Below the pieces are notes generated by a model. The model was not told the origin of the DNA. It was given only the letters and a program-made list of their open reading frames with translations, and ran no database searches. The position numbers were made by a program, and so were the translations under genes. From a virus (lineage: Duplodnaviria > Caudoviricetes), in the IMG/VR virus record IMGVR_UViG_3300025270_000009, positions 37,853-101,852 of that record: a DNA stretch of 64,000 nt. One strand, 5' to 3'. Position 1 is the stretch's first letter. The number at the start of each line of letters is the position of its first letter. Below, one piece after another: positions 9,897 through 50,424 of the stretch.

Positions 9897-9920
9897 AGGT
9901 ATCTCAGCGATGAGATACCT
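9897..9920. promoter_or_regulatory. perfect operator copy upstream of capsid gene
   Basis: aggtatctca-gcga-tgagatacct, perfect 10-bp arms. Confidence 0.85.
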
Positions 9921-20241: not shown

Positions 20242-20270
20242 TTTACACGGTATCTAAATGCTGAGATACT
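20242..20270 (+). promoter_or_regulatory. sigma70 promoter overlapped by operator (20250-20269)
   Basis: TTTACA-17-GATACT; operator gtatctaaatgctgagatac. Confidence 0.7.
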
Positions 20271-20276
20271 ATTTCC

Positions 20277-20430
20277 AGTTCAACAACATGACGACCTGTT
20301 GAGCCATTTGAATTCTCCACAATTCAGACGTATTACCAAGTCCTTTTGGTTAATTTTAAATCAGAGCCTTGCTTTGTGCACCGCGCACACTAGCTGAATG
20401 AAGCCCCTTTCGCCATGAGGGGCTTTTTTT
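20277..20430 (+). ncRNA. candidate multi-hairpin antisense sRNA (sRNA-1)
   Basis: Promoter, four small hairpins (three with anti-RBS-like loops), CCUUGCUU..GCUGAAUG boxes, terminator agcccc..ggggcttttttt. Confidence 0.7.
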
Positions 20431-39860: not shown

Positions 39861-39945
39861 GTTGTTACCTTGCTTGTTGCTGAATGTATTTCAATTTTGA
39901 CATACAGTTTTAGGCAGTCAATACCGAACAAGACAAAAATTGCCT
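39857..39945 (-). promoter_or_regulatory. cassette boundary unit
   Basis: 39857-39906 identical (50 bp) to 45853-45902. Confidence 0.9.
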
Positions 39946-45856: not shown

Positions 45857-45953
45857 GTTGTTACCTTGCTTGTTGCTGAATGTATTTCAATTTTGACATA
45901 CAAAAAGAGGCGGTCAATGCCGCCTCTTTAAATAATTGCCAAGTTATTATTTT

Positions 45954-47298: not shown

Positions 47299-47838
47299 TC
47301 AGAGCTCGTTGACAGGCACCGCCGCCATACCACAAACAAACAAATCAGCGCCCTTTTCACCCTTTTCAAAGAGCTCAAGTGCCCTTTCTTTTGTTGTAGC
47401 CACAAACGAATTAATCTCTTCGTCAAAGCGAATGCAGTAACCCTGCGCTCGCAACTTGGGACCAACCGTTTTAGTAACCGGCAGCACCTCGTTTGGCATC
47501 TGAGCTATGATCCGCTCAAAATCTGCTGAGGTCAGCTGTAAATGACCCTTTCGAGCCCTAACCAGTTTTTCAGCCAGTGCTCCGGTGACGGATTCGCTTT
47601 CTGACTCCATTCGAGACATCATAAGCTCAAGCTCTTTGTTCAGGTTCAACGCTTTGAACACCTTGAACAGCGTCTTTAACCGAACAGCCTCAGCTCGCTC
47701 AATAGCGGCAATTGACGGCTGTGACAGCCCAGTCATCGCCGCCAATTCTTTTTGTGACAGTCCGGCGCTTTTCCGCCGCTTTTGTATAAACGTGGCCAGA
47801 GCCTCAGAAAATTCTTCAAATTCCATGTTATCAACCAA
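47299..47838 (-). CDS. XRE-family HTH regulator
   Basis: RRKSAGLSQKELAAMTGLSQPSIAAIER. Confidence 0.85.
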   Translation of the reverse strand: MVDNMEFEEFSEALATFIQKRRKSAGLSQKELAAMTGLSQPSIAAIERAEAVRLKTLFKVFKALNLNKELELMMSRMESESESVTGALAEKLVRARKGHLQLTSADFERIIAQMPNEVLPVTKTVGPKLRAQGYCIRFDEEINSFVATTKERALELFEKGEKGADLFVCGMAAVPVNEL

Positions 47839-48364
47839 TGCTAGTTAAAAATTCAGAAGACATATTTGCCTTCAGTTTACTACCATCTAGCACCGCAATG
47901 CCAAGAGCCGGCATCAATTTTCTCATTTGAGTGGCTTGAGAATTCGCTGTACTCTGCTTCAGCCCTTTCTCCAAGTACACTTCAATAAGCTCTTTACGCT
48001 CAAATTCTTTTTTCTCTTTGAGGTGTTCAAGGGCAATCAATGTGTATCGAGACAAAGGTTTTCCGGCCTGAAGCGCTGCAATAGCGTTTTTCGCCTTGTC
48101 CTGGACTTTCTTGGGTAGGGACTCAATGTCGTAAGAGCCGGTTGAAACAGGCGCTTTCTTTGCGCTCTTTTTCTTTTCCGTCTCAGGCTTGGATTCGGCT
48201 TTCGCCTTTTTAGCCTGGCTTTTGGCACGAGCTTCATCAGCCTTCTTTTTTGTTTCGGCTTTCTTCTCTTGAAGCTTAGCTTCGTCTTCCGGTTTAGTGG
48301 TGGGCTTCGACGCTCCAATTTCTTCCTGAAGCTTGTCGATTTCTGCTAATAGATCGTCTGACAT
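47831..48364 (-). CDS. Lys-rich hypothetical protein
   Basis: 177 aa; leader and operator 48394-48413. Confidence 0.7.
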   Translation of the reverse strand: MSDDLLAEIDKLQEEIGASKPTTKPEDEAKLQEKKAETKKKADEARAKSQAKKAKAESKPETEKKKSAKKAPVSTGSYDIESLPKKVQDKAKNAIAALQAGKPLSRYTLIALEHLKEKKEFERKELIEVYLEKGLKQSTANSQATQMRKLMPALGIAVLDGSKLKANMSSEFLTSIG

Positions 48365-48464
48365 GATACACCTCTTGCTTTTGCTGAATGTTTGTATTTC
48401 GATGCTGATATACTAAACGATCCGAGTAGGCAATCAAGCGGTTTTTGATTTTGTTTTTTCCAAT

Positions 48465-48553
48465 AAAAAACCGCCTTCCCAAGCAAAAGAAAGGCGGTCT
48501 ACATTCAGCAATAGCAAGCAAGGTTTTACAAGAAGTGCAAAATCACGCTTACT
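48465..48553 (-). ncRNA. candidate master antisense sRNA (sRNA-4) complementary to conserved early leader
   Basis: TTGTCG-17-TGTAAT promoter; 25-nt seed at 48524-48500; terminator ACCGCCUU..AAGGCGGU plus U-tract. Confidence 0.75.
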
Positions 48554-48617
48554 TTGCTCATTACAGCATAAACCCTGGGCTGCGACAAGTTTTAATGCTT
48601 AATGCTGAATATCGGCT

Positions 48618-49058
48618 CTATTCCTTCTTAGCCTTTCGCTCTTTGTAAGACCGATAAAGCTCTTTTGCCTTTTCCGTTCCGCCCTGAAGCAATGGCTTGC
48701 TAAAGTAAAAAGGAACAATCCAGACCAGAATCGAGTTAATGTTTTTATCCACGATCTCCTGCAAGTCCTTCACAAAGTCAGCGTCAAATACAGCACCACC
48801 GGCTAAGAACAATACACAGACCAACCAAGCAAAAATCACAGCCACTACAATCGCTCGCCTTGAGACGTTCTGCCCCTCAGTGTTCTTCATGTACTTACCC
48901 AGGCTGTCGATAAACTGCCGGTTCGCCTCTACCCGCTCTTGATCGCCAAAATGAAGCTTGTCCATTCCTGATGAAACAGTGTCAAAGACGCCCTTCGTTG
49001 ACTCAGGTGTTCCGAACATAGTACCGAATACGTGTTTAATGCCATTCCACAAACTCAT
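48618..49058 (-). CDS. holin-like membrane protein
   Basis: Amphipathic N-terminus, 2 TM segments, basic C-terminus; operator 49102-49121 upstream. Confidence 0.55.
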   Translation of the reverse strand: MSLWNGIKHVFGTMFGTPESTKGVFDTVSSGMDKLHFGDQERVEANRQFIDSLGKYMKNTEGQNVSRRAIVVAVIFAWLVCVLFLAGGAVFDADFVKDLQEIVDKNINSILVWIVPFYFSKPLLQGGTEKAKELYRSYKERKAKKE

Positions 49059-49121
49059 AAAAAAATACCCCTGTTAATGAATAACAGAGGCATTTTATCA
49101 ACTATCTCAGTATTGAGATAC

Positions 49122-49364
49122 CTAAGTGTAACGAGAAATCTTCTGGTGCGACTTCAATACCAACTCCCAGGCGGTCATTAAAATCAACCAAATGCCGCAA
49201 GCAATCGAGAACAAGCCGAACAGAAGCGAATATCTGGCCAATAGCTCAAAAACATAACCATACCCGCCAAACGCTTCTTCGTTCCACTGGCCAAACACGC
49301 CCAAAGGTATGCTTGCCAGTGTAAACATGACACCAAATAACGTGAGCTTTATTGCGTCTCGCAT
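49122..49364 (-). CDS. membrane protein
   Basis: 2 hydrophobic segments. Confidence 0.55.
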   Translation of the reverse strand: MRDAIKLTLFGVMFTLASIPLGVFGQWNEEAFGGYGYVFELLARYSLLFGLFSIACGIWLILMTAWELVLKSHQKISRYT

Positions 49365-49927
49365 GAAAGTTCCTCCAAGTCTAACTTAAAATAGCCTTTC
49401 TTAAGGCCGTAAATGAGAGCGTCCATCATTTTCTCGGTATCGTACCAAGCTCGGTGAGCGCTAACCTCATCAAAATCTATCCGACACGCCCGACAAAGCT
49501 CAGCCAGTTTTGGCACCTTGCCGTTAGGAGTAGCCCATCTGCCGTTTTGCATCGTACAGAAGATCTCAATATCCGGCATTTCGAGTTTCACTTTGTTCAT
49601 CATGTGGTACATGAACGGCGCATCGAAATTGGCATTGTGAGCCACAAAAACGTCACAACCGTTAATTATTGACTTCACTTTGGGCGCAATCTCATGCCAC
49701 TCCGGAGCACCCTTTACCATGTCCGGTGTGATACCTGTTATCTCCTGAACCTTTTGCGGTATGCTGCGCTTCGGATCAACAAGTGTCGACCACTTCTTTC
49801 GGTCAACGGCCTCCATTGTCTCGGTGTCGAGTTTGACAATGCTTATGGCAATCTCAGTTACCATGTGACCGTCATCTGCATCGAAACCTGTGGTCTCTAA
49901 ATCCGTTCCGAATAATTTAAGTATCAT
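49349..49927 (-). CDS. DEDDh 3'-5' exonuclease (DnaQ-like)
   Basis: DLETTG, AHNANFD, HRAWYD. Confidence 0.92.
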   Translation of the reverse strand: MILKLFGTDLETTGFDADDGHMVTEIAISIVKLDTETMEAVDRKKWSTLVDPKRSIPQKVQEITGITPDMVKGAPEWHEIAPKVKSIINGCDVFVAHNANFDAPFMYHMMNKVKLEMPDIEIFCTMQNGRWATPNGKVPKLAELCRACRIDFDEVSAHRAWYDTEKMMDALIYGLKKGYFKLDLEELSCETQ

Positions 49928-50363
49928 ATTTTTCCCTCAACTTTTTGACCACGTTTTTAAAGCGCTTACAGGCGTCACTGGAATCGCTTATGTTGATTGA
50001 CTTCACCGGCTCCGAGATCAAAATGCGCATTTCGCTCGGAATGTAGTTTATGTGGTATGGGCCAGCCCTAACGGTGTCCGTTGATTGACCCACAACCTCT
50101 TTATTAAACTCGTGAAGCACGTTAATCAAAAAGTCGTCCTTGTCGTATCCGTTCAATACCGAATACAGTGCGTGAATAGCTTCATAACCGGCGTTGGTGG
50201 ACATATTGCCAGCCTCAACAGCCAGGCAAATGTTCTCAATCTGTCCGGTTATCTTTCTCTGAATGCCGTCCTGAAACTGTTCGAAGTCTTCTTCAGCGAT
50301 TTTAAGGCGCTCTCTCAACCTCTCTATTTCAGTGATTGACTCCAGTTCTTTCATGTCACTCAT
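49917..50363 (-). CDS. hypothetical protein
   Basis: 148 aa; leader 50371-50391; operator 50402-50421. Confidence 0.7.
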   Translation of the reverse strand: MSDMKELESITEIERLRERLKIAEEDFEQFQDGIQRKITGQIENICLAVEAGNMSTNAGYEAIHALYSVLNGYDKDDFLINVLHEFNKEVVGQSTDTVRAGPYHINYIPSEMRILISEPVKSINISDSSDACKRFKNVVKKLREKYDT

Positions 50364-50424
50364 TGCTCTTACCTTGCTTGCTATTGCTGAACGACTTAAT
50401 ACTATCTCAGCAATGAAATACTAA

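Follow-up and report, generated by a model that had tools for sequence, protein, structure and literature searches.

In the DNA of this uncultured 102-kb marine phage, the minus strand at 48462-48588 probably represents the gene of a small non-coding RNA that belongs to the 3'-end type and has a promoter of its own. The seed of this RNA is expected to pair with a leader shared by many phage messages and thereby to cover the ribosome-binding site. This reading, which we favour with moderate confidence, rests on sequence complementarity, modular conservation, predicted structure and covariation. Since the exposed stretch of the predicted RNA mirrors the leader of ~25 of the phage's own messages, it probably dampens their translation. 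No conserved peptide is encoded on either strand of the unit across the lineages compared; small peptides on the RNA strand were considered as an alternative and rejected due to lack of conservation.

Genomic context and shared leader

The window, i.e., the entire 64-kb stretch of DNA analysed here, corresponds to bases 37853-101852 of a 101,852-bp virus record from IMG/VR, the completeness of which is estimated at 100 % by CheckV. Nearly all genes are located on the minus strand. The gene complement includes an SbcCD-like nuclease, NrdAB, thymidylate synthase, DHFR, dUTPase and a DnaQ-like exonuclease as well as portal, terminase and tape measure proteins. The closest cultured relatives are nickie-like Pseudomonas phages (~112 kb), displaying protein identities of 40-51 % and a conserved gene order around the locus. 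Neither a tyrosine integrase nor a serine recombinase was found in this virus record of estimated full completeness, and the phage yielded no gene for Hfq or ProQ. According to the original prediction, the RNA should be on when the phage is repressed, which presupposes lysogeny; this link to lysogenic repression is without basis, since no integrase or resolvase is found in the gene content.

The core of the shared leader is the most frequent 9-mer of the 101,852-bp record, with 25 copies in gene orientation and a single one in the opposite orientation. Allowing for at most one mismatch, the leader 11-mer is found at ~25 minus-strand sites just upstream of a Shine-Dalgarno (SD) sequence and start codon, and at one site on the plus strand. 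In the main promoter class, the leader starts at the predicted +1, directly following an 18-bp palindrome that overlaps the -10 element. In case of the other promoters, the leader is located 4-38 nt further downstream, which suggests that it functions within the RNA and not as a promoter component.

The 18-bp palindrome is composed of two 7-nt half sites around 4 central bases and overlaps the region from -10 to +1 of ~25-30 promoters (e.g., at 49103-49120, 50403-50420, 20251-20268, 45883-45900 and 9900-9917 of the window). Overall, 48 strand-matches compare with 6.5 expected. It probably serves as operator for an HTH protein of the phage, for instance the one encoded by 47299..47838. The same palindrome arrangement, with different half sites, is present in one of the related lineages described below (lineage D).

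The cultured nickie-like phages share the gene order but possess neither the repeated leader nor the anti-leader unit. A sequence resembling the leader of the present phage (same CAUUCAG block and SD) is located upstream of nickie gp067 (L017:190-225), and gp067 is the orthologue of the first gene in the best predicted target operon (see below). This operon may hence be the place where the leader first arose.

Architecture of the minus-strand unit

The unit is located between two minus-strand genes, 48618..49058 and 47831..48364, which are separated by 253 bp (Table 1). The former encodes a protein with a transmembrane (TM) helix, and its earlier designation as holin-like is unsupported. The plus-strand 24-mer representing the inverted leader matches the leader consensus exactly, at a chance expectation of 0.00, and is the sole plus-strand copy of the leader in 101,852 bp. 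Within three mismatches of this 24-mer, the only other match is the minus-strand leader of the upstream operon, sharing an identical run of 21 nt. In the direction of transcription, the inverted copy is located directly upstream of the terminator. The original prediction had placed this copy between a minus-strand promoter and terminator; both the arrangement and the uniqueness of the copy are confirmed, and the coordinates proposed for -35, 17-bp spacer, TG-n plus -10 and terminator agree with the sequence.

Table 1 Positions of the predicted small-RNA unit, its predicted targets and a second unit in the 64-kb window
Feature	Position	Strand	Remarks
-35 element	48583..48588	-	17 bp from -10
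Extended -10	48560..48568	-	TG, one base, hexamer with G at -11; five-lineage alignment
5' hairpin	48514..48552	-	39 nt; begins 7 nt after -10; MFE -11.8 kcal/mol, z -3.76
Unpaired seed (predicted)	48499..48513	-	complementary to first 11-12 nt of shared leader
Full inverted leader copy	48501..48524	+	exact match to leader consensus
Intrinsic terminator	48462..48500	-	stem 48500-48468, then U run; terminator scan and folds
Leader-like 15-mer	48596..48610	-	upstream of promoter; lineage A and near-identical copies only
Leader of upstream operon	50371..50394	-	best predicted target; rank 1 genome-wide, -40.5 kcal/mol
Operon behind this leader	49917..50363, 49349..49927, 49122..49364, 48618..49058	-	
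Leader of downstream gene (47831..48364)	48365..48391	-	predicted target, -29 kcal/mol
Second promoter-to-terminator unit	20242..20430	+	downstream of plus-strand helicase genes

The extended -10 of the unit has the same TG-extended format as the leader promoters of the phage, apart from the G at -11. A G at this position is normally crippling for sigma-70 promoters, and the consensus promoter scan did not list the unit's promoter because the key A is missing there. The case for an own promoter consists of a promoter-shaped block with a fixed 17-bp spacer in five lineages, but with a -10 that carries G at -11. Given this G, the promoter may be weak, or factor-dependent, or something else. The 18-bp palindrome accompanying the true leaders is absent from the promoter at 48560-48588. 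Readings as a sigma-54 or another alternative promoter were dropped upon inspection by eye, as some lineages lack the spacing that these promoters require.

The predicted RNA folds into a 5' hairpin, an unpaired seed and the terminator hairpin. That portion of the anti-leader which mirrors the pre-SD and SD region is contained in the 3' arm of the 5' hairpin. Opening of the seed is predicted to require 0.65 kcal/mol (0.81 kcal/mol in lineage C), and opening of the 5' hairpin, which contains half of the long complementarity, 7-12 kcal/mol (12 kcal/mol for full opening). The terminator consists of a 13-pair stem followed by six U and is common to the small RNA and the upstream operon. An A-rich tract on the minus strand directly after the terminator (48433-48461) is kept in lineages A, B, C and E; it resembles an UP element, as the promoter of the next gene has its -35 immediately downstream of the tract.

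On the plus strand, the inverted copy could be taken for a genuine leader of a small GTG ORF (48535-48648), the counter-explanation put forward along with the original prediction. The leader indeed reads correctly on this strand, and an SD-like AAGG is located 10 nt before the GTG. However, no plus-strand promoter or palindrome is present upstream and the terminator hairpin directly abuts the leader; moreover, the 37-codon ORF overlaps the end of the opposite-strand gene, contains a stop in lineage B and has no counterpart in lineage C. A function as plus-strand leader is accordingly extremely unlikely.

Conservation across five lineages

Relatives were retrieved by word-based and exhaustive protein searches with both flanking proteins, which yielded four lineages beyond that of the phage itself. 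Lineage A comprises the own genome and near-identical copies (L027, L067-69). The two flanking proteins are 83 % and 79 % identical in lineage B (L028 and L066, cut) and 76 % and 61 % identical in lineage C (L026), and the identity of the flanking protein amounts to 50 % in lineage D (L072) and 36 % in lineage E (L075). In one of the near-identical copies (L027:1-3190), NrdA has a length of 1119 aa with a faint LAGLIDADG hit, compared to 730 aa in the present phage, which suggests that the L027 nrdA gene carries an intein or a homing-endonuclease insertion.

The unit is located at the same place in all five lineages. The nine alignment columns of the extended -10 are invariant, the promoter spacer always comprises 17 bp of variable sequence, and the -35 has the sequence TTTACA in D and TTG as its first three bases in the other four lineages. 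The first base of the hairpin follows 6-8 nt after the -10 across the lineages. Between lineages A and C, the flanking genes of which share 66-74 % nucleotide identity, the -35 block, the -10 block, the 11-nt seed block and the 3' arm of the terminator are almost or fully identical, no difference being found in the 11-nt seed block. The originally proposed discrete minus-strand unit of promoter, predicted ~90-nt RNA and terminator is thus supported, and all five lineages preserve it as a module.

The base of the 5' hairpin stem shows no variation among the lineages and therefore provides no evidence for or against the structure. The apex differs in sequence among lineages A, C, D and E, yet folds in each of them (z scores of -3.8, -1.9, -3.5 and -4.1, respectively), and the hairpin of lineage B differs from that of A in the loop alone. 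According to the predicted folds, the seed remains single-stranded in each of the four complete lineages (A, C, D and E). Both the U tract and the 3' arm of the terminator are kept in all five lineages, with changes in the stem preserving pairing. Consensus folding of A and C revealed no double-sided changes in the shared stem, so that the structural support rests on separate folds for the individual lineages. In case of lineage B, two short contigs from one ENA sample flank the anti-leader (end of L028 at 706, start of L066 at 1); the assembler broke at the repeat, and the lineage B seed is thus absent from both.

Upstream of the unit, the lineages differ. In B, D and E, the -35 begins 3-10 nt past the stop codon of the upstream gene. 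In lineage A, stop codon and -35 are separated by a 24-nt insert carrying the leader-like 15-mer. This 15-mer had been proposed to sequester the seed as a built-in off switch. While the sequence exists, it does not belong to the conserved part of the unit, being confined to the lineage-specific insert upstream of the -35 and absent from the other four lineages. Lineage C has a MazE/PemK cassette, together with a long terminator-like hairpin, between operon and unit, and the unit is intact. Conservation begins just upstream of the -35 and the unit is intact whatever precedes it, i.e., the pattern expected of an autonomous promoter-to-terminator module.

The toxin-antitoxin cassette of lineage C (L026:10448-11120) is inserted between the gene for the TM protein and the small-RNA unit. 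Its flanks resemble each other, and both look like the region just before the -35. The promoter of the cassette is enclosed by the long hairpin with its U run.

Alternatively, the inverted leader might have no RNA function and represent a DNA feature, i.e., a relic or hotspot of recombination among the repeated modules of promoter and leader, or an additional site for a leader-binding protein beside the terminator. The leader is a highly repeated module always adjoining an 18-bp promoter palindrome, assemblies break at the leader repeat, and gene conversion could account for a 3-nt insertion shared with a target leader (see below). Nevertheless, a mere DNA feature is hardly probable, considering that five lineages retain the copy at a fixed place between hairpin and terminator together with an invariant promoter block, that the fold is conserved while the sequence changes, and that the palindrome of the true leaders is missing at this site.

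Beyond these lineages, searches with both flanking proteins and the exonuclease retrieved no relatives from IMG/VR. The 11 hits obtained there with the leader motif are all single matches in coding regions, consistent with chance, and the 37 hits to the seed-plus-terminator pattern are all unrelated. Patterns of the whole unit yielded no hit among JGI metagenome contigs and a single one in GTDB genomes, which falls within coding sequence of a Chryseolinea MAG and is attributed to chance. The DNA search against phage GenBank sequences retrieved no match, and no Rfam family reached its gathering score anywhere in the 64-kb window.

Predicted targets and covariation

For target prediction, the 26-nt anti-leader was slid along 101.9 kb of minus-strand RNA and evaluated by duplex energies. 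The top ~16 minus-strand sites are all leaders adjoining start codons (-40.5 to -27 kcal/mol), and the best plus-strand duplex site besides the unit itself reaches -21.9 kcal/mol. Scans of lineages D and C with their own RNAs place leaders at ranks 1-4 and 6 and at ranks 1-4, respectively. The proposed complementarity of the seed to the shared leader is thus borne out, its core being predicted as unpaired and the leaders as the top targets genome-wide.

The best predicted target, i.e., the leader of the upstream operon, is matched by a perfect run of 21 nt, in agreement with the 21/21 pairing originally described, plus a C:G and a G:U pair beyond. The original prediction did not mention that this leader heads the very operon ending at the unit's terminator and that it co-varies with the RNA. 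Hence, the mRNA of the upstream operon carries at its 3' end a sequence complementary to its own ribosome-binding region (21-nt run, top genome-wide). The operon encodes a 136-148-aa protein of no known family, an exonuclease and two small proteins; its first gene has no family in PHROGs, Pfam or the protein atlas. Its leader ranks first in lineages A and D and is matched over the longest contiguous stretch in C. At three leaders of identical sequence near 39887, 43378 and 45883, pairing would comprise 11+10 bp with a 3-nt bulge, as anticipated by the original prediction. The leader of the gene downstream of the unit would pair in cis only on read-through transcripts.

Two covariation events link the RNA to the leader of its own operon. 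In lineage A, a 3-nt insertion is present at matching positions in the RNA and in this leader, but in no other leader. In lineage D, the own-operon leader displays a change from U to A two bases before the shared core, mirrored by a change from A to U in the RNA. In addition, the leader family of lineage D lacks the CAUU block (the four bases preceding the core in A, C and E), and the D seed lacks its complement. Since these are two events among a handful of lineages, it should be considered that such covariation could be simulated by gene conversion, the inverted repeats being 1.9 kb apart.

Complementarity reaches at least the first SD bases in every lineage. In A it spans the whole SD, while in C, D and E it stops at the SD's 5' edge. 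The free seed of lineage D matches typical leaders over only 6-8 nt. The position of the duplex bears on the sign of the effect, as the same RNA might instead activate or stabilise its targets, if pairing at the extreme 5' end of the leaders protected them from 5'-end-dependent decay or remodelled the mRNAs. Such a role would suit an unpaired seed matching the first 11 nt of the transcripts predicted from leader promoters, as well as a complementarity ending at the edge of the SD in three lineages. It is nonetheless improbable, because pairing enters the first SD bases in all lineages and the duplex is located inside the region that the 30S subunit must contact for initiation.

Second small-RNA-like unit

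A further promoter-to-terminator unit is found on the plus strand (Table 1). It contains an anti-SD block, a hairpin and an unpaired anti-leader 8-mer directly before the terminator. In a relative (L070:690-830; neighbouring protein 86 % identical), the body of the unit has diverged, whereas its promoter, its terminator and an 11-nt block of anti-leader have been retained. The promoter of this second unit carries the 18-bp palindrome, in contrast to that of the minus-strand unit.

Proposed mode of action

With respect to transcription, 5' end, pairing in vivo and sign of the effect, we infer the following scenario. Transcription by the RNA polymerase of the host would begin 6-8 nt past the extended -10 and end at the terminator, yielding an RNA of ~85-92 nt composed of a 5' hairpin, 10-15 nt of single-stranded RNA and the terminator hairpin with its U tail. 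The single-stranded stretch, as the complement of the invariant leader start, would nucleate pairing with ~25 phage mRNAs. From there, the duplex could grow to include the hairpin's 3' arm, the complement of the pre-SD and SD segment of the leader. A duplex formed over the ribosome-binding site would reduce translation, and duplexes of at least 20 bp would probably promote cleavage as well. The small RNA may thereby establish a feedback loop on the upstream operon together with a broader damping of the whole leader family.

As the RNA shares the terminator of the upstream operon, it can also arise as the 3' end of the operon mRNA. One may therefore ask whether the anti-leader functions exclusively as 3' untranslated end of this operon, acting on that single leader in cis or, following 3' processing, in trans. 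In this case, it would tune the translation or stability of one operon rather than of a regulon. The own-operon leader being the best match in A and D and the longest contiguous one in C, its involvement in both covariation events and the continuity from operon to unit in A, B, D and E, where no terminator intervenes (other than in C with its MazEF cassette), would all fit such a restricted role. However, processing alone requires no promoter-shaped block, and such a block with 17-bp spacing is kept right after the stop codon. The unit of lineage C has also remained intact despite the intervening cassette and its long terminator-like hairpin, the free seed corresponds to the leader core that is invariant throughout the family, and the second unit at 20242-20430 bears the same motif. 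We regard restriction to the 3' untranslated end as rather unlikely, though deserving consideration, and prefer a small RNA gene with its own promoter. Judged by sequence alone, such an RNA may regulate many leaders in trans or primarily its own operon.

The two units taken together allow a more far-reaching, tentative proposal, which we consider possible but doubtful: this virulent marine phage clade might run a self-contained riboregulon, in which at least two small RNAs with one seed are directed against the leader of ~25 mRNAs from different promoter classes. If true, the phage would possess a genome-wide post-transcriptional throttle or timer for its own genes, anchored in the feedback loop of the exonuclease operon. 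If the RNA predicted at 48462-48588 is real, large virulent phages can coordinate dozens of genes after transcription by means of one short seed, which would also explain the oddly uniform leader kept on unrelated genes. The compact system (~90-nt RNA, 11-nt seed, defined leaders) is open to study with reporter fusions in E. coli, and the predicted anti-leader RNA is a possible source of orthogonal translational regulators.

Comparison with known systems

The RNA predicted here shares single properties with several known regulators. The enterobacterial sRNAs DapZ and MicL exemplify small RNAs that derive from mRNA 3' ends and have their own promoter. They resemble the present unit with respect to the gene position at the mRNA 3' end, the shared terminator, the separate promoter near the stop codon (a putative one in the phage unit) and the short conserved seed. 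In contrast, they are chromosomal, Hfq-dependent and directed at host mRNAs, whereas regulator and predicted targets are both phage-borne in the present case. The icaR mRNA of Staphylococcus aureus contains, at its 3' end, a sequence that can pair with its own ribosome-binding region, reminiscent of the best match here, which is also the leader of the same operon. The icaR element, however, has no separate promoter and a single target, while the present unit has a conserved promoter-like block, arguing against a lack of independent expression, and has survived separation from its operon by MazEF in lineage C. The class of 3'-end-derived sRNAs with their own promoter has been reviewed (PMC9438474).

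From Hfq-type sRNAs of enterobacteria, the unit is familiar in two respects, i.e., a terminator with a U tail of at least six residues and a seed complementary to several mRNAs near the ribosome-binding site. GcvB (RF00022) is likewise a multi-target sRNA, and the hairpin loop at 48530-48545 (minus strand) weakly resembles its R2 block. Membership in the GcvB family was rejected (21.8 bits versus a gathering score of 42), and the GcvB-like loop is probably due to chance, since it is not conserved in C, D and E.

Among phage RNAs, c4 confers immunity in temperate phages, where it controls a single operon (ant) and is released from the transcript by cleavage. The c4 antisense RNA of phages P1 and P7 has a length of 77 nt, pairs in trans around the ribosome-binding site of the phage's own mRNA and originates from the transcription unit that also contains its target (PMC12197685). 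The present RNA is similarly phage-encoded and predicted to pair in trans near a ribosome-binding site of its own phage, and it may likewise arise from the transcription unit of its best predicted target. It differs from c4 by the absence of lysogeny genes, by its conserved own promoter (predicted) and by ~25 complementary leaders. Homology to the C4 family of Rfam is not apparent, as this family was neither reached in the 64-kb window nor among permissive matches at the locus, and a location in the immunity region of a temperate phage does not apply, no tyrosine integrase or serine recombinase having been found in the record. The 68-77-nt phage RNAs sar (P22) and OOP (lambda) block translation or trigger cleavage by base pairing (PMC12197685). 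Being cis-encoded and overlapping their target, they are perfectly complementary to this single target, whereas the present RNA is encoded at least 1.9 kb from its targets and matches a repeated motif.

The phage antisense RNA literature searched, including PMC12197685, yielded no description of an RNA of a lytic phage directed against a leader common to many of the phage's own genes. The known representatives c4, sar and OOP each control one message and mostly occur in temperate phages. As judged from its sequence, the present locus differs from these systems by belonging to a phage without lysogeny genes, by being encoded in trans and by being apparently aimed at a repeated leader.
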